A stretch of DNA of 64,000 nucleotides, taken from NCBI GenBank assembly GCA_963706575.1, contig CAVPNL010000004.1:64001-128000 (forward strand). Direction: 5' to 3'. Positions within the stretch are counted from its first letter, which is position 1. Every line of letters starts with the position of its first letter. Below the pieces are notes generated by a model, which was not told the origin of the DNA, did not search any database, and saw only the letters and a program-made list of their open reading frames with translations. Source of the DNA: an uncultured delta proteobacterium (GTDB lineage Bacteria > Desulfobacterota > Desulfobacteria > Desulfobacterales > JAHEIW01). Shown piece after piece: positions 6,636-38,716 of this stretch. A program made the position numbers and the translations under genes.

Positions 6636-9042
6636 CTAATTCCGCAAGGGTTTACCGGTGGTCAGCATATGATCAATGCGCGCCAGGGTCTTTTCTTCTT
6701 TCAAAAGTTCCAGAAAGGCTTCACGCTCGAGGGTCAAAATAACATCTTCGGCCACTTCTGAATTGTCCCGCACATCTCCGCCGCTGATGACATAGGCAAT
6801 CTTTTTGGCCAGAAAGGCATCATACTCGGAGATAAATTTGCCGCTTAGCATATTGGATATTTCGGCGTTCACCATGCCCTGGGCGGCCTGACCCAGCACT
6901 TTTATTTTCCTTCTGGGCGGCGGCGCATAGCCCTCGTCCACCATTTTTAGAACGTCTTTTTTGGCCTCACCGATGAGATAGTCTCGATTAAACACGATGC
7001 GATCGCGGGGCCCCAGGAAACCATTGGCCCGGGCATCAGCAGCCGATGTGGAAACTTTGGCCATGGCGATAGCCATAAATACCGGCAGAAAAAATTTGGC
7101 CAGATCAAAACCGGTCACCGCCTCCGGAACCGAACTTAAGAATTTTTTCATAAGGTTCAGGCAAGCCCCGCCGGCAGGGACCAAACCGACACCAATTTCG
7201 ACCTGTCCCATATACAGCTCGGCGTGAGCGACGATCTTATCCGCCGCCAGGCAAACCTCACACCCACCGCCGAGGGTCAATCCATAAGGGGCTGCGACCA
7301 CCGGAAAGCCGGCGTACCTGAGATCCTGAAGTCCGTATTGCAGATTTTTGACCATCAGATCGATGCCCGCATATTCGCCTTCCTTTACGGCAGCGGCCAC
7401 ATCGGCCAGATTGGCACCGGCTGAAAAGGCACCCGGCATCCCCCCGGCCTGATTGCCGATCACCAGACCGAGGCCTTCTTTATCGGTAAATTCTCTGGCT
7501 TCATGAACCGCTTCCACGATTTGCTGATTCAACGAATTCAGCTTGGTGTGAAACTCCAGGCAGAAAACGCCGTCATCCAGGTCGATGAGGCTGGCTGATT
7601 CAGATGTCTTGACGGCTTTGCCTTTAGCCTTCACAGCTGTCAGGTAAATAATGTTTTCGCTGATCACCTGTTCTTTGTAGCTTTCAGATTCAAAATCATA
7701 GTAAAACACCGTGCCGTTTTCCGTTTTGTAAAATGAAGTGTTGCCGGATTTGAGCATCTGCTGGATTTTTTGCGGCACATCAAATCCTTCTTTTTGCATG
7801 CGCTCGACAGCGGTTGCCAGACCGATGGCATCCCAGGTTTCAAACGGCCCCATCTCCAGATTAAAGCCCCAACTTCATGGCATTGTCGATATCCACAATG
7901 GTATCTGAAATTTCCGGAATCCGGTTGGCGGCATAAATCAGATTATTGGCGACCGCTTTCCAGGCAAATTTGGCGCCCTTGTCTTCACCATACACAACGG
8001 TCTGCATTTTTTGCGGCAGGGTCTTGGCTTTTCGCGCTGCCGCCAGACAGGGTAATTCCGGCGGTCGGGCCTCTTCATATTCAAGGGTTGCCGGATCGAT
8101 GACTTTGCGGATTTTCTGCCAGTCCGGTGTCAGGTCGGTTTTATAAAATCCGCTCTGACTTTTTTTGCCCAGTAAATTCTTATCGATCATGGTATTTACG
8201 AACTCCGGCAGAACAAAACTTTCACGGTCCTCATCATGAGCGATCATCTCATAGGTATTACTGGCCACATGGGCCAGGGTATCCAGCCCCACGATATCGG
8301 CTGTTTTAAACATACCGGTTCGGGGTCTGCCCATGACCGGTCCGAACAGGGCATCCACCTCCGGAATGCTGATCCCTTCCTCCAGCATCAGCTGCATCAC
8401 CTTCACCATGCCCTGCACACCGATTCGATTGCCGACAAAATTTGGGGTGTCTTTGGCCCACACAATTCCTTTGCCCAAAATTCGTTCCCCAAAGTCGGCC
8501 ATAAATTCAAGAATCTCGCTCAGGGTTTCTTCTCCGGGAATAATTTCAAGCAGCTTCATATATCTGACCGGATTAAAAAAGTGGGTTCCCAGAAAGTGCT
8601 GCTTAAATTCTTTGCCGCACCCTTTGGACATCGCCTTTAACGGGATGCCGGAGGTGTTCGTAGAAACGATGGTGTCTTTTTTGCGAACCGGCTCAATTCG
8701 CTTTAAAAGATCCTGTTTAATCTTTAAGTTTTCAACGACGACCTCGACAATCCAGTCGCAATCGGCAATCTTTTCAAAATCATCTTCCAGATTGCCAATG
8801 GTAATGCGTTCCGCATCCCGGGGGGACATAAAAAGCGCCGGTTGGATCGCCAACGCGGCATCCAGACCGGCCTTCACGATTCGGTTGCGTGTCAGCGGAT
8901 CCTTTTTTTCTTCCGCCTTTAAATTCGCCGGCACGATATCCAGCAAAAGTGTTTTTATGCCGGCCCCGGCCAGCAAGGCGGCGATACCGCCCCCCATAAT
9001 TCCTGAACCGATGACAGCGGCAGATTGAATCTTCCTTGGCAT
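6636..9042 (-). pseudogene. fadN: 3-hydroxyacyl-CoA dehydrogenase / enoyl-CoA hydratase (FadN-type) split by a 1-nt insertion at about 7871 (true pseudogene or assembly error)
   Basis: GSGIMGGG, EVVVEN, NTSG, HFFNP in the 5' ORF; crotonase motifs FSAGAN, LGGGCE in the 3' ORF; removing one T gives continuous NAMKWGFNLEMGPFETWD; ATG 9042 after GAGGAGG. Confidence 0.85.
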
Positions 9043-9075
9043 AATGGCCTCCTCGTCAATAGTGGGCAAGTTTAA

Positions 9076-9093
9076 TGAATGAATATTCATTCA
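9076..9093. promoter_or_regulatory. FadR(YsiA)-type operator
   Basis: Perfect palindrome TGAATGAATATTCATTCA 33 bp upstream of the fadN start; weaker copy at 9249-9266. Confidence 0.75.
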
Positions 9094-9341
9094 CTTATCA
9101 AAGACATTATTTGCCTGTCAAGCAAAAAACCACATCGCTTCAAAATAGAAGGATGTGTTTATAATATATAATTTCAAATAATTATATAAATAAGTATCTT
9201 GGAAACCAATAATAAGAAAATTAGAATGGATTTATAAGAAAAATGATAAAAGTGAATAATCATTCAATTAGGCGCATTGGTATGATTTTCAAAGGTCGTG
9301 TGGTTGCTGTGGAAAACAGAAAATAAGGGTTAACATTTTAG

Positions 9342-9372
9342 TAGAAGTGGTCTCAAAACACCAGATCAGGTT
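9342..9372. repeat. Solo MITE-end-like repeat
   Basis: TAGAAGTGGTCTCAAAACACCAGATCAGGTT, 27/31 identical to 38719-38749. Confidence 0.6.
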
Positions 9373-10108
9373 ATTGCTTAGGGCCGAACAACTGGATCTT
9401 CTTCGGTTTGTCAGCAGGAGGCGTCGCCGTGTTGGCCGCGGTTGCTGTCGGTTTTTTGGCCGATTTGACAGCCGATATCTGATCCGATCGGGCGACCATC
9501 GACTTGCGGGTTTTTAACAAGCTCGCAGGAATATATATTTCGTCGCCGACCAGCAAAAAATTCGGATCAATGTCCGGATTGGCTTTGGCAATGGCCTTAC
9601 GGTTTTCCGCATTCCCGGTGTACCACTGGGCGATGGCGCTAAATTTTTCGCCCGATCGGGTCACCGTATGCGCAAAATACCCCGGAAGGGTTTTGGAGAC
9701 CACTTTGCGGGGCAACGGTTTTTTGGTTTTCATCATTTGCGGCGGAATGTTGATGATATCTCCAACCGCAATTCGATTCGGATTGAGGCCTGGATTTGCC
9801 TGGGCAATCGCTTTCCAGTTCGCATAGCTCCCCGTATACCATCCTGCAATCAAGGACAGCGTCTCTCCGGGCCATTTTACCCGGTGCTCAAAATAATTAA
9901 TTCGCTGAGGCTCAATGGCTGTTTCCTCATCTTCGGAAGGTGAAAATTTGGAACCCACCGCCTGCCATTTTTCTTTAAGCCAGTTTTTAGAAGCCGCGTA
10001 TTTTTGGTTGGCAGTCGTTTCTTTAGTGCCGGCACAGCCAAACAGCATCACCATGATCACCCCGCCAATGATGCAATTTCGAACCCGGTTTCTGACTAAA
10101 AACTCCAT
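9371..10108 (-). CDS. Lipoprotein with two LysM domains
   Basis: Lipobox LFGC; two H.V...GE.LS.IA.WY.G....W.AIA.ANP.....I.VGD.I.IP repeats. Confidence 0.85.
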   Translation of the reverse strand: MEFLVRNRVRNCIIGGVIMVMLFGCAGTKETTANQKYAASKNWLKEKWQAVGSKFSPSEDEETAIEPQRINYFEHRVKWPGETLSLIAGWYTGSYANWKAIAQANPGLNPNRIAVGDIINIPPQMMKTKKPLPRKVVSKTLPGYFAHTVTRSGEKFSAIAQWYTGNAENRKAIAKANPDIDPNFLLVGDEIYIPASLLKTRKSMVARSDQISAVKSAKKPTATAANTATPPADKPKKIQLFGPKQ

Positions 10109-10113
10109 GGGAT

Positions 10114-11916
10114 TTACTCCTTTTGTCTCGTTATTTGATTTAAATAGGCCACGGCTGGCGCATTGTCAGGATTGATTTCAATAGCCCGTTTGAGGCTCTT
10201 TAAGCATTGGCGGCGTTCGCCCAGCAGCTCCTGAACCATGGCAAGATTAAAAAGGGCTTCATCCAGAAAAGCAGGCTCCATTTGGACCACCCGCGCATAC
10301 ATCTCCTTGGCCCTGGTATAATTTTCAGTGACCGCATAAATATATCCAAGGTTAAAAAAGGCATTCGGCAGCTGGGGTTCGAGCTCGGCGACCTTCTGAT
10401 AAGTATCGAGGGCCTGCGGATAATTGTTATCACGCAGGTAAATGAACCCGAGTTTGGACAGTACCGGCAAGCTGGTGGGCTTTATATCCAGTGCCTTGAG
10501 CAACAAGCCCTTCGCAAATTCCTTATCCGTTGAGATCATCTCTTCGGCCAGACCCCGCAATGCTTCGACGTAGGCATCTGATAATCCATTGATGGCGGAT
10601 TTATCATCGGCTAAAACCGTTTCAAATAACGCCACTGCTGAAGAAAATTGTCTGGCTTCAAGCGCGTCACGGGCGGCTTTAAGTTGGTCAGCAATCGTAT
10701 CGACATGCGGTGGCGTCAATTCAATCGAATAGGCCGCAACGGATCGGTCTGATGGTGTAAACGGCAGTTCGGCCAGACTGAGATTAAACACAAGACCAAT
10801 GAGGGCCATAGCGGCCAGCGGCATAAAACGCCAGATGTTGCGCCGAAGTAACTTCCATTTTCCGGGAGCGGCAAGAAAAACGGTGCTTCCGTATGTTCCC
10901 TCAGCGTCAGGTGTCAGGCTGCCCGGATCGGATCGCTCATCACCGTAAACCTGTGTTTTTTCCCATAATGCGGTTTCTTCTACGGCCAATTCTTCCTTAA
11001 AAAATTCTTTGACAAAATTGGCAAAACTTCTGCCGTTCGTCCGGACAGACAGCTCAAAAATGCATTCTTCCAGATCGGCGAGCATTTCCCCGCAGGTTTG
11101 ATAGCGCTGATCGGGATCCTTTGCCAGGGCCCCTTCCACAACCTCATGAATTTTTGCGGGAAGATCCGGCAACAGCTTGTCCAGCGGTTCATATTGGGCT
11201 TTACGCACCTTGGAATAAACCTGCATGGTTTCACCTTCGAACATTCGCCGTCCGGCCAGAAGTTCATAAAATATAATCCCGGTTGAAAAAATGTCGGACC
11301 GGTGATCAATGGTTTTGCCGGTGGCCTGCTCCGGTGACATATAGGCCAGTTTGCCTTTGATCAAACCCTCGTGAGTGGTGCTGTTGTGGCTGGCGGCCTT
11401 GGCGATGCCGAAATCAATAATTTTCACCTGACCTTCATAGGTCAAAAAAATATTTTGAGGATTGATATCACGATGGATGATATTTAGCGGCTTGCCCTGC
11501 AGGTCTTTTAAATTGTGCGAATAATCAAGCCCGGCACAGATACGCGAAATGATATAAAGGGTATTTTCCAGGCCCAGGGGCATGGCGGTTTTTCTGGCCT
11601 TACGGGTCAGCTTGCGCAGGTCCTTGCCAAAAAGGTATTCCATGGCGATAAAGTATTCGTCATCGATGCTGCCGAAATCGTAAATCTGGACAATGTTTTC
11701 ATGCTGAAGCAGTGCCGCAAGCTTGGCCTCATCAATAAAGGCCTTCACCAGGTTGCCCTGATCGGTGAGGTGCGGCAATATCTTTTTTATGGCGACCTGT
11801 TTTTCAAAACCATGCGCCCGGGTGACCTTGGAACGATACAGTTCGGCCATACCGCCCACAGCAATTTTCTGCAGCAGCTGATATTTACCGAATTTTTTAT
11901 GCTCGAAGTCTTTCAT
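10114..11916 (-). CDS. Hanks-type Ser/Thr protein kinase with TM helix and C-terminal TPR repeats
   Basis: GGMAELY, VAIKK, HRDINPQN, DFGIAK, YMSPEQ, SDIFS; hydrophobic segment; AFFNLG-type TPRs. Confidence 0.92.
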   Translation of the reverse strand: MKDFEHKKFGKYQLLQKIAVGGMAELYRSKVTRAHGFEKQVAIKKILPHLTDQGNLVKAFIDEAKLAALLQHENIVQIYDFGSIDDEYFIAMEYLFGKDLRKLTRKARKTAMPLGLENTLYIISRICAGLDYSHNLKDLQGKPLNIIHRDINPQNIFLTYEGQVKIIDFGIAKAASHNSTTHEGLIKGKLAYMSPEQATGKTIDHRSDIFSTGIIFYELLAGRRMFEGETMQVYSKVRKAQYEPLDKLLPDLPAKIHEVVEGALAKDPDQRYQTCGEMLADLEECIFELSVRTNGRSFANFVKEFFKEELAVEETALWEKTQVYGDERSDPGSLTPDAEGTYGSTVFLAAPGKWKLLRRNIWRFMPLAAMALIGLVFNLSLAELPFTPSDRSVAAYSIELTPPHVDTIADQLKAARDALEARQFSSAVALFETVLADDKSAINGLSDAYVEALRGLAEEMISTDKEFAKGLLLKALDIKPTSLPVLSKLGFIYLRDNNYPQALDTYQKVAELEPQLPNAFFNLGYIYAVTENYTRAKEMYARVVQMEPAFLDEALFNLAMVQELLGERRQCLKSLKRAIEINPDNAPAVAYLNQITRQKE

Positions 11917-12037
11917 TGGCTAGTTGATATATCGGCAATTCGGGGAGGATACTTGAGAATGGATTTTTGAATAATGACGCGAATTTGGATAAGCCAGGCA
12001 GGCTTGGACGACTGAATGTTGAAATAGAACTAATTAT

Positions 12038-12122
12038 CCACAGATTACGCAGATTGCACAGGTTAAAAAAGAGATATTTATGATGTTGATCAATAATCTG
12101 TGTGAATCTGTGTAATCTGCGG
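12038..12122. repeat. Inverted 9-mer tandem array (CAGATTACG type)
   Basis: CCACAGATTACGCAGATTGCACA ... TGTGTGAATCTGTGTAATCTGCGG; same family at 29154-29237. Confidence 0.8.
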
Positions 12123-12153
12123 CAGTATTGTTATTTTGCATCTCGGCACGAAT

Positions 12154-12238
12154 TCGTGGCTGGCCTGCGACGAGCTCAGCCGAGTCGAAGCCACTCCCAC
12201 ATTTCATTTTCAGCAGTGGGATCCCGATCAGCAGGAGA
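12154..12238. repeat. REPIN whose REP carries a 24-bp internal insert
   Basis: Reverse complement reads GTGGGAGTGGCTTC[GACTCGGCTGAGCTCGTCGCAGGC]CAGCCACGA; partner GTGGGATCCCGATCAGCAGGAGA at 12216-12238. Confidence 0.75.
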
Positions 12239-12307
12239 TATGATCTGGTATTTTGCGCCAGATTCCAACAGCGCCCTCGGACAGGAAGCATTGTTTTTAG
12301 GCCATTT

Positions 12308-13834
12308 TTAGATTTTGTAGAGCAAATCGATATATCTCTCCAGCAGATTGCCCACAACGCTGCGGACCGGCAGATTGGCTGCCAAGCCGTAAATGGGTGC
12401 CATGCGGCTGTCAGCGTCCGGATGATTGCGGACCATGTCGACGCCGGCTTTTAAATCGTCGATAAATCGTTCGGCCACACCGGGCTGGGTGTGTCTCAGC
12501 GTTACGCAAAGATGCACACAAGAGGGATGGTGCAGACCGTTAAGGCTCCATTTTCTGGATGTCAGATAATCCATCACCCGGTAGATATCCAGTGTTTTGG
12601 AACCAAAAGCGATGACCCACAGCGGATCGCCCAATATGTGAAGATCGGAAATATCTTGAATTCCCTTTTTGATTTTTGAGGCGGTTTCAAGTATTTTCCG
12701 ACTGGCCGTCAGGTAACCGCTTTTTCCGGTTTTGACCATGGCCGCCCAGCAAGCGGCACTCAGGGCACCGGGACGACTGCCCGCAAAGGTCGGCGAAAAA
12801 TAAAGCCCTCCGGGCCAATCGGTTGATGTAAAATACTGATAACGTCTCAGTTCCGGGCCCCGATACAAAATCACAGAGGTCCCTTTGGCCGCATATCCAT
12901 ATTTATGCGTATCTGCCGAAATTGACGTCACCCCGGGCAGTCTGAAATCAAATAGCGGCACTTCATAGCCGAGCTTTTCCGCCCAGGGCAAAACAAAACC
13001 GCCTAGGCAGGCATCGGTGTGAAACCCAATTCCCTTTTCTCTGGCCACCTCGGACAGCGCCTCAATCGGATCCACCATCCCGTGGGGAAACGAAGGCGCC
13101 GATCCGACCAATACAACAGAATTGCGAGTGACCGCATTGCGGGCTGCTGCTACATCCGCCCGGTAATCGGCGTCCACCGGTATGCGTTTGATTTTGATCT
13201 TGAAGTATTCCGCTGCCTTATCAAAGGCGGCATGGGCGGTGATCGGAAGGATCATCTCGGGCCGTGTGATCTTTTTTTGGTCCCGGGCCCAATCCCGGTA
13301 AGTTTTCATTGCCAGCAGAATACTTTCGGTTCCTCCCGACGACACTACCCCGCAGACTTTCTGATCCTTACCCGATTCGGCTGCAGCCGTATCGGCCCCC
13401 AGCATTTTGGCCGTCATGGACACAATTTCAGATTCGTATTTGGCACTGCTGGGCCACAGATCGGAGTGCAGGGGATTGCTCTGGGAATTCAGCGCGTAGA
13501 TCTGATTTAAAAACTGGATGTGGGCCTCATCACCGTGGTATACAGCACCGGAGGCGTATCCTTCTTTCCATTTGGCCTGCTCCAGATCAGACAGGGCCTG
13601 CATGTCTTTGAGGATATCGGATTGATCGCAGCCGATATCCGGTAATTCGGCCCAGGTGTCAAAATGGCCCCGGTAGGGTTTGACGACCCCTTCGAGCTCA
13701 TTGATGAGGGTTTCAAATTCTTTCTCAACCTTTTGTTTCACGGCAGGTATATGTTTGATGCGATTGTAGAACCAGGTCGCCATTCGGGGGTTGATTTTAC
13801 CAAGAAAACTTTCGCTAATTTTCTGAATATCCAT
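12308..13834 (-). CDS. PLP-dependent sphingosine-1-phosphate lyase-like enzyme
   Basis: [44 protein letters not shown] (PLP Lys), WPGGLY.SPT.AGSRPG. Confidence 0.85.
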
Positions 13835-13883
13835 TCATCCTCCCCAACTCCATCCCACCCTGTTGCTCAAATGGTGAGCAATT

Positions 13884-14027
13884 AGAACCTATCTCAAAAA
13901 TAGGATTTTGGTCCAAGATCTCGGCGGGGCCTAGTTTTTAACCGGAGGCATACTGCTGTATGTCGAGGATTAGAAACGCGGAACCAACAAAGATATTGGG
14001 CCAAAAGACATTTTTGAGATGGGTTCT
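13884..14027. mobile_element. MITE (144 bp)
   Basis: TIR AGAACCTATCTCAAAAAT / ATTTTTGAGATGGGTTCT (17/18); extended dyad symmetry; central GAGGCATAC-TGCT-GTATGTC hairpin. Confidence 0.8.
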
Positions 14028-14032
14028 GGCCG

Positions 14033-15625
14033 TCAGGTACGGTTGAGCCGTTTGAAAATCGGTTTGTTGCGTTTATAAAGCGTTAGAAATTGGCGGTATA
14101 ACCGATCATAGAGGTTGCGGTTTTTCGGATCCGGTTGATAGGTTCGCGCAATTTCAACATGATCGGCAATGTCATCGACCGACAGGTAACCCATTGAAAT
14201 GGAGGCCAGAAACGCGGCACCGCGTAAATTGGCCTGGATGGGATCTTTGACCTGCTTGATGGTGCGATCGAAAACATCTGCAAAAATTTGACACCAGACA
14301 TTGGAATTGGCACCCCCACCGATAAAATGGATGGGGTCCAGTCGTCGTTTAATGAACTTTTCCAGGTACCCCAGCAACCACCTTGAATTATACGCCACGC
14401 CTTCGAAAATCGCTCTGATTAGATGCTCACGGGTCGTGCTTAACGAAAGATTAAAAATACCCGAACGAACCGAATCGTTTTCGACGGGCGTGCGCTCACC
14501 ATAAAGCCAGGGCATAAAAATCACGTTGTTGCTCCCGGCCGGCGTATTTTCTGCAATCTCATCAAAAATCTTGTAAACATCCGGCAGACTGGACTCCACC
14601 AGCAGGCGATCTTTATGATACAAAATATTGTCTCTTAAGAAGGTCAGGCAGGCACCCGCGGTTTCCTGCTCATTGGCGATAAAATAACGCTCCGGAATCG
14701 CCGAAGGCAGCGCCGCCATATTGTGAAACAGATCGGTTTTTTTAAATGGCACGTGGCAGGTGATCCAGGAGGATGTCCCCACGTAAAGATGCCCCTCGAA
14801 ATCTCTGACAGCGCCGGAGCCGACGGCGGCACCGGGGAGATCCGGTGTGCCGGTTATCACGGGAGTGTTTTCAGCGAGTCCCAATTCTTGGGCGACTTCT
14901 TTTTTTAGCGGGCCCAGTATGTCAACCGCACGCCTAAGATCGGGGAATTTATCGCGGGGAACGCCACAGAGTCGAAGGAGCCGGTCATCGTAGTCAACTT
15001 TGGCCAGGTTGCGATTATCGGTTATCCAGTGGAGGGCAATTGAATCGAAGGAGGCGGCGAATTTGCCGGTGAATTTCAGATTAATATAATCCTTGGGCTC
15101 CAGGAATTTGTAGGTCTGCTGATAGCGTTCAGGGTGTTCGTGTTTTAAAAAGAGGATATGGGCAATCGGGTCCTTGCCGGCGTGACCAGGCACACCGCCG
15201 GTTAAACTCAACCAACGTCTCAGTTTATGGATGCCGTAACCCGCGATATTGATCAAGCCGCTTGTGGTTTTTTCAATGTATCGGCTGCCGCGGGTATCCA
15301 TCCATATGATAGCATTGGTCAGGGCATTGCCGTCTCGATCGACTGCCACAGTTCCGGACCATTGGGTGGTGCAGCTTACGCACACAATATCTTTGGCTGC
15401 CACCCTTTTTTTGTTGAGAACCCGTTTAACGGTGTTGATGATGGCCTGCCACCACTGATCCGGATCTTGCTCGGCGCCGCCATTCGGCAGGATAAGCAGA
15501 TCGATGCTTTCAAATTCATAATCAACTACCTCACCGCGAGTGGAAACCAGTGCTGATTTTGGCCCGGAGGTTCCCAGGTCAATGGCCAGAATATATTTAT
15601 CAGTAGCGGCTTTCTTTTTACCCAA
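14033..15625 (-). CDS. FGGY-family carbohydrate kinase (xylulokinase-like)
   Basis: AIDLGTSG.K, EQDP..WW, IIWMDTR, GTS, GERTP, RAIFEGVA, GGGA.S.VWCQI.ADV. Confidence 0.92.
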   Translation of the reverse strand: MGKKKAATDKYILAIDLGTSGPKSALVSTRGEVVDYEFESIDLLILPNGGAEQDPDQWWQAIINTVKRVLNKKRVAAKDIVCVSCTTQWSGTVAVDRDGNALTNAIIWMDTRGSRYIEKTTSGLINIAGYGIHKLRRWLSLTGGVPGHAGKDPIAHILFLKHEHPERYQQTYKFLEPKDYINLKFTGKFAASFDSIALHWITDNRNLAKVDYDDRLLRLCGVPRDKFPDLRRAVDILGPLKKEVAQELGLAENTPVITGTPDLPGAAVGSGAVRDFEGHLYVGTSSWITCHVPFKKTDLFHNMAALPSAIPERYFIANEQETAGACLTFLRDNILYHKDRLLVESSLPDVYKIFDEIAENTPAGSNNVIFMPWLYGERTPVENDSVRSGIFNLSLSTTREHLIRAIFEGVAYNSRWLLGYLEKFIKRRLDPIHFIGGGANSNVWCQIFADVFDRTIKQVKDPIQANLRGAAFLASISMGYLSVDDIADHVEIARTYQPDPKNRNLYDRLYRQFLTLYKRNKPIFKRLNRT

Positions 15626-15690
15626 TTGATTTTCAACCCGATGTTAAGCGATCCCGTTATAAAGCTTAAAGAATTAAGGTCCGCTCTATT

Positions 15691-15812
15691 TGGAATATTG
15701 GAATGATGGAGTAATGGAAAGATGGGTTCCGGGACAATGGAAGAATGTTTTAATAGAATGAGAAACAGAGAGCATCCTTATAACATCAACATTCCACTAT
15801 TCCATTATTCCA
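15691..15812. repeat. Inverted 8-mer tandem array (TGGAATRN type)
   Basis: TGGAATAT TGGAATGA TGGAGTAA TGGAAAGA ... ACATTCCA CTATTCCA TTATTCCA. Confidence 0.75.
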
Positions 15813-29153: not shown

Positions 29154-29237
29154 ATCCGCAGATTACGCAGATTCACGCAAATTATTTTTCAAGACCATGT
29201 TTTTTTTTAATCCGTGTAATCTGCGTAATCTGCGGAT
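29154..29237. repeat. Inverted 9-mer tandem array (CAGATTACG type)
   Basis: ATCCGCAGATTACGCAGATTCACGCA ... TCCGTGTAATCTGCGTAATCTGCGGAT. Confidence 0.85.
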
Positions 29238-29429
29238 AATATCGAAAAATTGAAAAATAAATTCCCGTAAATGCCATCATGCAGCAGTTTGACGGAGATT
29301 ATTTCAGAAAAAGTGTTGTAAAATGTAGATTTCTGTTGACATCGATTTTAACTTTCTATATGGAAACAGAGAAATAGGCGATCGGTTAAGATTAACCTAA
29401 CTAATTGAACAAGAAGGGGGTAAAGCATT

Positions 29430-38218: not shown

Positions 38219-38306
38219 AAAAAACATGAGGTTTTTCGGAAAGTACAATTCTTCAAAATAGGCCATGTATTGTTAGGAATTTACCAATAATTAAAGGGAG
38301 AATGCC

Positions 38307-38633
38307 ATGTCACCTGCAAAGAAAAAAACAACTGCCAAAAAGCCTGCTGCGAAAAAGAAAACTGCCGCCAAGAAAACTGTTGCGAAAAAGAAAGCTGCTG
38401 CTAAGAAACCTGCTGCGAAAAAGAAAACTGCCGCCAAGAAAACTGTTGCGAAAAAGAAAACTGCTGCGAAGAAAGCTGCTGCGAAAAAGAAAACTGCCGC
38501 CAAGAAAACTGTTGCGAAAAAGAAAGCTGCTGCTAAGAAACCTGCTGCGAAAAAGAAAACTGCCGCGAAGAAAGCTGTTGCGAAAAAGAAAACTGCTGCT
38601 AAGAAAGCTGTTGCGAAAAAGAAAAAGAAGTAA
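38307..38633 (+). CDS. Histone H1-like Lys/Ala-rich protein
   Basis: 108 aa, 50 Lys, no acidic residue, eight 11-aa repeats; AAGGGAG RBS, own promoter and terminator. Confidence 0.85.
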   Translation: MSPAKKKTTAKKPAAKKKTAAKKTVAKKKAAAKKPAAKKKTAAKKTVAKKKTAAKKAAAKKKTAAKKTVAKKKAAAKKPAAKKKTAAKKAVAKKKTAAKKAVAKKKKK

Positions 38634-38657
38634 TCAGCATTTACCCTCTCACCAATC

Positions 38658-38716
38658 AAAAACGGGGAGGCAAGAATCATTTTTATGGGTTTTAAATGAT
38701 CTCGCTCCCCGTTTTT
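38658..38716 (+). terminator. Intrinsic (probably bidirectional) terminator
   Basis: AAAAACGGGGAG ... CTCCCCGTTTTT. Confidence 0.7.

Follow-up and report, generated by a model that had tools for sequence, protein, structure and literature searches.

Two adjacent genes in an uncultured delta proteobacterium probably form a catabolic unit, in which an FGGY-family kinase would phosphorylate the C1 hydroxyl of a sphingoid-type 2-amino-1,3-diol and an StSPL-type sphingosine-1-phosphate (S1P) lyase would then cleave the product, although this reading is by no means secure. It is supported by the families to which both proteins belong, the active-site residues of the lyase, the adjacency of the two genes in either order, the mutual exclusion of the kinase's three amine-acting partners, and the ceramidases that adjoin the kinase in other lineages. 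The relevant features of the window, by which we mean the whole stretch of 64,000 nucleotides that was analysed, are as follows, the lyase gene lying directly downstream of the kinase gene on the same strand:

14033..15625, minus strand: gene for an FGGY-family kinase of an uncharacterised clade (530 aa, TTG start)
13884..14027, strand not given: 144-bp MITE in the kinase-lyase spacer, with terminal inverted repeats and copies in the genome
13839..13844, minus strand: GGAGGA, a Shine-Dalgarno-like element 5' of the lyase start, read from the sequence and outside the MITE
12308..13834, minus strand: gene for an StSPL-type S1P lyase (508 aa, ATG start)

The substrate would be acquired from the environment and would be a long-chain base, not a short amino-diol; dead biomass would supply it as free sphinganine, sphingosine or phytosphingosine. 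Once the kinase had acted, the lyase would cut between C2 and C3 to give phosphoethanolamine and an aldehyde, which may be oxidised by one of the genome's aldehyde:ferredoxin oxidoreductases and then enter beta-oxidation. Such a unit may feed the cell, rid it of an antimicrobial lipid, or do both. The original prediction did not recognise the pathway as described, and we likewise found no description of a route joining an FGGY kinase to an S1P lyase in the literature searched. We know of no FGGY kinase that acts on a long-chain base.

The lyase belongs to the PF00282 group of fold-type-I PLP enzymes (60 bits against a cut-off of 27). Its best solved match is StSPL of Symbiobacterium thermophilum (3MAD; further structures 3MAF, 3MAU and 5EUD), at 653 bits over residues 46-508, compared with 393-412 bits for the yeast and human S1P-lyase chains, 87 bits for MfnA and at most 70 bits for GAD. 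We took the 14 key StSPL residues from Table 3 of PMC6148460, mapped their numbering via alignment, and found all 14 identical in the window lyase, as expected from the original prediction of a complete S1P-lyase signature set. These comprise all eight residues of the PLP lysine/aspartate, PLP sandwich and phosphate cup (K311, D274, H201, C276, G168, T169, H310, S353) and all six of the substrate-phosphate pocket and entry (A103, Y105, N126, H129, K317, Y482). A glutamate/tyrosine decarboxylase, an identity named beforehand as one that would overturn the prediction, is ruled out, with scores below the curated cut-offs for both MfnA (217.9 against 299.4) and GAD (109.5 against 380.4). The protein is thus an StSPL-type S1P lyase, predicted from its sequence to perform retro-aldol cleavage of a long-chain-base 1-phosphate. 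Whereas the window lyase is known from sequence, the activity of StSPL was shown by assay: according to PMC3148216, it splits S1P in vitro and has an unknown role in nature. No partner kinase is named for it in the portions of the StSPL literature that were searched. Because S1P lyases need a base that is phosphorylated at C1 and leave sphinganine itself unconverted (PMC6148460, section 5), a kinase is required.

Linkage between kinase and lyase is far above chance. Of the sampled lyases, 14 share at least 59% identity with the window protein, and every one of them has a kinase of this clade within 2 kb, namely 4 of 4 in the same phylum (300-genome sample) and 10 of 10 in Myxococcota (151-genome sample, its centre genome included). 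In Desulfobacterota, Chloroflexota and Myxococcota the kinase gene comes first, in Actinomycetota the lyase gene, and a more distant kinase subclade (35-48% identity) adjoins its own lyase subclade. A non-conserved linkage, previously listed as a possible refutation, is therefore rejected. The prediction of an anaerobic operon for sphingoid or amino-polyol catabolism survives in part: the pair is real and conserved, but since genomes of Myxococcota and Actinomycetota have it too, it is not specifically anaerobic. One candidate for a lyase without a kinase, in genome G008, was discarded because the kinase there is interrupted by a contig end.

Ceramidases provide support for a sphingoid substrate. 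In other lineages, ceramidases of two unrelated families adjoin the kinase in seven loci. An alkaline ceramidase (PF05875), kinase and lyase are packed with overlapping ends in L293, while a neutral ceramidase (PF04734) adjoins the kinase in L263, which is of the aminotransferase type, in L202, and, as found by tblastn, in L215 and L304-L306. Only 2 of 301 genomes of the window's own phylum have a full neutral ceramidase; one of these lies inside a kinase cluster, whose kinase aligns to the window kinase without gaps at 59% identity. On the other side, just 1 of 74 lyase-linked rows of the kinase tree has a ceramidase neighbour. Other neighbours of the clade include one MFS family that adjoins lyase-type and aminotransferase-type loci alike, and a gene resembling aldehyde:ferredoxin oxidoreductase, which in L109 separates kinase from lyase.

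What weighs against a sphingoid substrate is that the organism's own genome, which is 92% complete, gave no match to PF04734, PF05875 or EutB; no control matched in either ceramidase search, while the PF04734 search did give matches in other genomes. The genome has one penicillin-amidase-family gene, and genes of this family also occur close to some of the loci. Its sole BioF-like match is a gene that we take to be Kbl-like, next to one that we take to be Tdh-like, so no sphingolipid synthesis was found in it.

It is important to consider that the substrate might instead be a 2-amino-1,3-diol that is short or not a lipid (an amino-alditol, or a threoninol-like or aryl-serinol compound), with sphingoid bases at most a side substrate here. 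We consider this unlikely, yet it is the likeliest of the alternatives. Small polyols are substrates of FGGY kinases (PMC3245297), and a neutral ceramidase was found neither in the window's own genome nor in any of the 21 kinase-lyase carriers among 39 genomes of its phylum that were searched. Moreover, clade members in Asgard archaea have a GH4 glycosidase, a HAD phosphatase and an MFS gene as neighbours, and others have class II aldolases and RuBisCO-like proteins beside them, whose substrates are small sugar phosphates. However, the two unrelated ceramidase families, together with class-3-type aldehyde dehydrogenases and Mpo1-like genes near clade members, argue for a lipid, as do the substrate-entry residue Tyr482 retained by the lyase, whose eukaryotic counterparts reportedly accept chains of C7-C20 (PMC6148460), and a conserved kinase insertion described below.

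The long-chain-base reading has to accommodate a further observation, which is that the lyase is no fixed partner of the kinase clade. Within 2.5 kb of the kinase, 80 GTDB loci have a lyase (50), a saccharopine-dehydrogenase-like gene (9), a class III aminotransferase (4) or none of these (17, of which 10 are on short contigs). An unbiased sample of 33 kinase loci from the same phylum has a lyase in 7 (one tail-to-tail), the dehydrogenase type in 12 and the aminotransferase type in 9, and 10 of 28 genomes whose kinase locus is lyase-less have no lyase match at 1e-30. Conversely, among 151 Myxococcota genomes, 100 have a lyase match and just 25 a kinase; most S1P-lyase homologues need no FGGY kinase of this clade. 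The proposed co-occurrence check was borne out in one direction, from closely related lyases to the kinase, and in part in the other. In no tallied locus do two of the three partners occur together within 2.5 kb. Kinases of all three module types form one clade, in which we counted at least eight partner changes, a raw count on trees made with FastTree only, which carry long-branch warnings. Asgard archaea also carry the clade; its neighbour there is either a class III aminotransferase or, as in locus L057, an enzyme resembling saccharopine dehydrogenase.

Because the kinase clade is often lyase-less and paired with other amine-acting enzymes, it appears to serve several downstream routes. The earlier suggestion of a non-canonical FGGY kinase that makes the lyase's substrate thus stands as far as the enzyme's being no xylulokinase and its ceramidase neighbours elsewhere are concerned, and needs widening in view of these other partners. 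We tentatively suggest, as a possibility that falls short of being probable, that the clade is a common prokaryotic sphingoid-base kinase outside the DAGK family, and the hub of three interchangeable routes in bacteria and Asgard archaea. These would be cleavage by S1P lyase, transamination with a fuculose-phosphate-type aldolase or RuBisCO-like protein as the next step, and NAD(P)-dependent deamination by a saccharopine-dehydrogenase-like enzyme.

A variant that we regard as improbable is that the kinase takes the deaminated 2-keto form (a 2-oxo-1,3-diol, compare FucK acting on fuculose) in a side branch, with another kinase feeding the lyase. Deamination, phosphorylation and aldol cleavage would be a natural order in the aminotransferase and dehydrogenase loci, L027 kept its kinase after losing the lyase, and the window's genome contains one DAGK-family gene above cut-off that could serve instead of the FGGY kinase. 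However, the lyase needs the amine, and lyase-linked loci have no source of the keto form, since aminotransferase and dehydrogenase are absent within 2.5 kb in all those tallied.

Returning to the amine-bearing substrate, the kinase is likely its C1 kinase, as predicted from gene context. Only FGGY domains were detected (PF00370, 154 bits; PF02782, 90 bits; each over cut-off). The absence of a DAGK catalytic domain in this domain search lowers family membership, not the claim of a sphingosine-kinase-like function. The catalytic motifs are present (DLGTS, D110-x-R112, D262), and D110, R112, D179 and D262 are invariant across 132 labelled homologues. The protein falls under all 12 NCBIfam FGGY cut-offs. 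That it is an ordinary xylulokinase beside the lyase by accident, as automatic database names would have it and as XylB's place as best NCBIfam and PDB match might suggest, is extremely improbable, and this alternative, once named as fatal to the prediction, is rejected by an XylB (TIGR01312) score of 264.5 against a cut-off of 380.25 (116 bits short), by Q88-W89-S90 where XylB and the control XylB have Q-M-H, which puts Trp-Ser in place of the Met-His that XylB-I has at its first two specificity positions, by the lack of a xylose isomerase (TIGR02630) match in the 92%-complete genome, in a search in which 5 of 14 controls matched, and by the reciprocal 14-of-14 linkage.

Counted from R112, a segment of the kinase has 64 residues, whereas that of a xylB-annotated control has 53; the kinase thus has about 11 residues inserted, in the region 113-141. 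Among the representatives examined, 36 of the 39 with at least 37% identity carry the insertion, as do 27 of the 61 below that level, and thus it is no hallmark of close relatives only. The insertion is predicted, with low confidence, to be helical (14-sequence alignment; mean pLDDT 56.7, insertion region below 50). Its hydrophobic moment of 0.61 is outside the kinase's top 12 windows, and membrane binding by it is only a lead. D152 was rejected as an amine-binding residue, because K-D at 151-152 is widespread in distant relatives without the insertion.

Several known systems resemble parts of the predicted route. The L-fucose/D-arabinose route pairs FucK, an FGGY C1-kinase, with the class II aldolase FucA. 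XylB, GntK, GlpK, FucK and LsrK share the two domains and catalytic motifs of the window kinase, which differs in its sub-cut-off scores, specificity residues and insertion, and has no sugar-pathway neighbours at the window locus. The eukaryotic exit route (SPHK1/2 or Lcb4/5, then SGPL1/Dpl1, then fatty aldehyde dehydrogenase) has the same predicted reaction order and a homologous lyase, but its sphingosine kinases belong to the DAGK family (PMC6148460), and the window locus has no linked ceramidase or aldehyde dehydrogenase. The bacterial kinase dhSphK1 (PG1348) of Porphyromonas gingivalis, which phosphorylates dihydrosphingosine (PMC9045371), resembles mammalian SphK1 and comes from a sphingolipid-making host, unlike the FGGY window kinase; the words lyase and FGGY are absent from the main text of PMC9045371, and Symbiobacterium had no match in three text supplements of PMC3245297. 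FumI, an aminotransferase acting on hydrolysed fumonisin, a sphinganine analogue (PMC7711896), is, together with FucK/FucA, a model for the sister kinase modules, which are absent from the window locus. Glutamate-semialdehyde aminomutases are the nearest matches of the sister-module aminotransferase, whose 31 PDB matches at 1e-30 do not include FumI.

The breakdown of sphingolipid backbones in free-living prokaryotes is largely unassigned, and the sphingoid-base kinases described in PMC6148460 and PMC9045371 are DAGK-type or SphK1-like. If our reading is true, use of a sugar-kinase fold would be convergent evolution and a new kind of sphingoid-base kinase, and many xylulokinase annotations would need correcting. 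The hub, if true, would give orphan bacterial S1P lyases their partner and assign substrates to several unassigned operons, one RuBisCO-like-protein pathway included; from the partner swapping one can also predict what aminotransferase-aldolase and RuBisCO-like operons act on, some of them in Asgard archaea. Two proteins and commercially available substrates would suffice to test for an anaerobic sediment route for sphingoid bases.

The spacer (13835-14032) measures 198 bp, or 54 bp once the MITE is subtracted, which agrees with the original prediction of co-directional genes about 54 bp apart; both reading frames have the predicted limits. Promoter and terminator scans were close to shuffled sequence (8 against 4.9 +/- 2.5 and 8 against 5.2 +/- 1.9), and none of the sites fell within the spacer. 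In RNA runs, at most 9% of sampled words were present, and depth lay mainly on the multicopy MITE; RNA contigs over the genes were short and mostly diverged, and among those listed none spans kinase and lyase. A 1032-bp stretch of contig C17 bounded by MITE-type ends was inspected and has no transposase-like ORF. The MITE is no part of the pathway. Its insertion is recent, since in the closest relatives the spacer is free of the MITE and measures about 56-60 bp. Relatives L002 and L022 share the GGAGGA that precedes the lyase start. The terminal inverted repeats are 16 bp with one mismatch, and the genome contains 31 full-length copies (at least 80% identity), mostly flanked by T and A.

The kinase and the lyase form a real and conserved gene pair, arranged as follows.

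12308-13834, minus strand: ORF, second of the co-directional pair, encoding a PLP enzyme of the S1P lyase family (508 aa)
13884-14027, within the kinase-lyase spacer: 144-bp MITE, one of a family present as 31 full-length copies across the genome (5.67 Mb)
14033-15625, minus strand: ORF, first of the pair, encoding an FGGY kinase (530 aa)

The spacer measures 198 bp, or 54 bp once the MITE is subtracted, and relatives with ~90% kinase identity have spacers of 56-60 bp without the MITE. The original observation of co-directional genes about 54 bp apart, apart from this insertion, is thus borne out in its ORFs, spacer and MITE. Kinases 78-91% identical to the window's come mostly from genomes labelled Desulfobacterales or Desulfobacteraceae, which makes a Desulfobacterales bacterium of sediments the probable host. 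Neighboring HD-GYP-type, Ser/Thr kinase-TPR and LysM genes accompany the pair in close relatives only, and we therefore treat them as synteny; the last two (a Ser/Thr kinase with TPR repeats, then a two-LysM protein) occupy 9371-11916. Short repeat or palindromic elements lie on either side of the pair (12033-12242 and ~15690-15800), with related copies at 2301-2375 and 29203-29240. A repeat array at 38248-38658, with a 33-nt period (15+18), is probably an intra-protein repeat.

We file the lyase in the S1P-lyase family, its activity being predicted from sequence. It scores 653 bits against the Symbiobacterium thermophilum enzyme (StSPL; PDB 3MAD); the remaining S1P lyases of solved structure give 361-422 bits, and 4W8I gives 234. 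A glutamate/tyrosine decarboxylase was rejected, given 87 bits against MfnA, at most 70 against glutamate decarboxylases, and scores below both the MfnA and GAD cut-offs. The full S1P-lyase signature set that had been claimed is present: all 14 residues of Table 3 in PMC6148460 are identical. The same genome has a second S1P-lyase homologue (40-41%; G000:C9:212896-214206, or 7894-9219 of locus L101), preceded by a 454-aa unknown gene and without a nearby FGGY kinase, and we count this paralogue against the kinase-lyase reading.

Reading function from gene context, we regard a sphingoid-base route as the likeliest explanation, and a reasonably probable one. A free sphingoid base would be taken up, the FGGY kinase would phosphorylate its C1, the lyase would split the phosphorylated base into phosphoethanolamine and a fatty aldehyde, and the aldehyde would be oxidized. 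The predicted order of reactions resembles that of the long-chain-base exit route, but the kinase is non-homologous; with moderate confidence, gene context leads us to predict that the pair is such an exit route with a different kinase. In keeping with the view that this pathway is undescribed, the full-text literature searched, mostly outside subscription journals and supplements, yielded no paper joining an FGGY kinase and an S1P lyase; looking for the two together brought up 3 animal papers on other subjects. The words "operon" and "kinase" are absent from the accessible part of PMC5234717.

The lyase sets the substrate skeleton, a 2-amino-1,3-diol 1-phosphate, and ceramidase neighbors point to a long chain. 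In locus L293, the genes for alkaline ceramidase (PF05875), kinase and lyase overlap at their ends. In L263, whose kinase shares 59% identity with that of the window, the order is DUF2147, MFS, neutral ceramidase, TetR, kinase, aminotransferase, RuBisCO-like protein, aldolase. Neutral ceramidase is also present in L304-L306 (a single kin group), L202 and L215; the full gene occurs in just 2 of 301 Desulfobacterota genomes, that of L263 among them. Genes resembling Mpo1, which functions in yeast phytosphingosine breakdown, occur in 3 of 81 clustered loci.

Profile searches of the window's genome matched neither ceramidase family (neutral, alkaline), and found there neither EutB nor a serine-palmitoyltransferase-like gene apart from a Kbl-like one; its one DAGK gene above cut-off is counted against the sphingoid reading. 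Among 39 genomes searched, neutral ceramidase occurs in none of the 21 Desulfobacterota kinase-lyase carriers. The substrate would therefore have to enter as a free base, be freed by a different amidase, or not be a lipid. As to such an amidase, L037 has a penicillin-amidase-family gene directly upstream, and in L086 one lies a few genes off. A short amino-diol is the best placed of the alternative substrates, yet we consider it unlikely. For the sphingoid-base route, aldehyde:ferredoxin-oxidoreductase-like enzymes of the genome could take up the aldehyde; there are 17 matches, none linked to the kinase-lyase locus, and in L109 such a gene lies between kinase and lyase.

Among the best 80 of 580 confirmed kinase loci in GTDB, the partner within 2.5 kb is the lyase in 50, a saccharopine-dehydrogenase-like gene in 9 and a class III aminotransferase in 4; the other 17 lack a partner, and in 10 of them the flanks are short. 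Because this set is biased to close relatives, we drew two even samples. The kinase occurs at 1e-80 in 28 of 300 other Desulfobacterota genomes; 33 of its 34 matches were fetched, the remaining one being already in the set as L114, and these have lyase (7), dehydrogenase (12), aminotransferase (9) or no partner (5). It occurs in 25 of 151 genomes of the Myxococcota sample, where the 28 loci fetched, centre genome excluded, have lyase (12), dehydrogenase (5), aminotransferase (4) or none (7). The expected conservation of linkage held for lyases at least 59% identical, all of which lie by coordinates within 2 kb of the kinase (4/4 in the Desulfobacterota sample, 10/10 in the Myxococcota sample), while the kinase itself is with a lyase only at the lower frequencies just given. 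Distant lyases (35-45%) are mostly away from the kinase, and 100 of the 151 Myxococcota-sample genomes have a lyase match. Two lyase subgroups are tightly linked, the StSPL-like one and another at 44-52%. Since related genomes are not independent, all these figures are counts rather than statistics.

Three loci of the Myxococcota sample (L279, L281, L283) have one or two DctP-family solute-binding proteins upstream of kinase-lyase. Genome G041 (loci L027 and L313) has a 72% kinase with the lyase lost at the syntenic site, and elsewhere a 47% lyase preceded by just 39 residues that match the C-terminal end of the kinase; this single case is possibly one of complementary loss.

No tallied locus (165 de-duplicated rows) has two of the three partners within ~2.5 kb. 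In a FastTree phylogeny, the partner switches at least 8 times over 132 labelled rows, and a 29-row subclade mixing all three types (support 99) is sister to the window's 28-row group. The closest cross-type kinase pairs are 68% identical for lyase versus either other type and 81% for aminotransferase versus dehydrogenase. The aminotransferase is a glutamate-semialdehyde-aminomutase-like transaminase, and the dehydrogenase is related to carboxyspermidine and saccharopine dehydrogenases; presumably these and the lyase, a PLP retro-aldolase, all act on an amine-bearing carbon. We infer that the kinase clade serves one substrate class, with an amine adjacent to the phosphorylated carbon.

The aminotransferase and dehydrogenase types are often accompanied by a RuBisCO-like protein or a class II aldolase, the latter closest to ribulose-1-phosphate and fuculose-phosphate aldolases. 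In its 2-keto form, D-ribo-phytosphingosine shares its configuration at C3/C4 with D-ribulose, and FucA-type aldolases cleave D-ribulose 1-phosphate. Kinase specificity positions 88-90 differ between partner types, so some clade members may take the keto form; that the window's kinase does so appears improbable. A xylulokinase, finally, is rejected as very improbable, in keeping with the earlier view of a non-canonical enzyme: both FGGY domains are present with all 12 NCBIfam FGGY cut-offs missed, Trp89-Ser90 replaces the Met-His with which, according to PMC3245297, the specificity residues of XylB-I begin, the segment starting at R112 is 64 residues long in 69 of the 72 lyase-linked rows where it could be measured versus 53 in a xylB-annotated control, and a search of the genome for xylose isomerase gave no match (controls positive in 5/14).

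Among the best 80 of 580 loci, the 18 archaeal ones are of the aminotransferase/dehydrogenase type or have no tallied partner, and one adjoins an MfnA-like gene; in 16 of their genomes searched at 1e-30, a lyase match is absent (8), weak (7; 30-37%) or 45% (1). Five loci of Heimdall-/Hodarchaeota-type archaea (L057, L061, L063, L077, L079) have the kinase, then a GH4 alpha-galactosidase-like gene, HAD phosphatase and MFS gene, usually with the saccharopine-dehydrogenase-like gene ahead. The alternative, aminotransferase module is also carried by a cultured rumen anaerobe, Butyrivibrio fibrisolvens, on a plasmid (L311:6995-11592: 34% kinase, class II aldolase, GtrA-family gene, class III aminotransferase). 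In the window's genome, a cluster without FGGY kinase (L152:6252-14593, G000:C9) encodes a RuBisCO-like protein, class II aldolase, two UPF0261 (Tm-1-like) proteins, a Zn alcohol dehydrogenase and an FAD oxidoreductase.

A second FGGY kinase, with 26-28% identity to that of the window, belongs to an operon noted at L102 (G000:C6:416318-421492), L103, L116 and L313, together with an FAD-linked oxidase (PF01565/PF02913) and a glycerol-3-phosphate-dehydrogenase-like gene; the operon possibly serves ether-lipid or related lipid catabolism. In three genomes other than the window's a 36-41% S1P-lyase homologue follows this kinase, so a second, distant FGGY type is also lyase-paired.

A metagenome scan with a 45% identical kinase homologue from a Burkholderia ambifaria plasmid gave 80 loci, with the aminotransferase in 66 and the lyase in none. 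The usual layout is TetR, DUF2147, porin, kinase, aldolase, aminotransferase, unknown, MFS, SDR, aldehyde dehydrogenase. This operon is conserved between the plasmid (L147:2631-17058) and many of the metagenome contigs (L157-L236), with a Gcw_chp porin, FGGY kinase, class II aldolase, class III aminotransferase, class-3-type aldehyde dehydrogenase and, as the "unknown", a 215-aa protein without a Pfam match; an Mpo1-like gene or a ceramidase is sometimes added.
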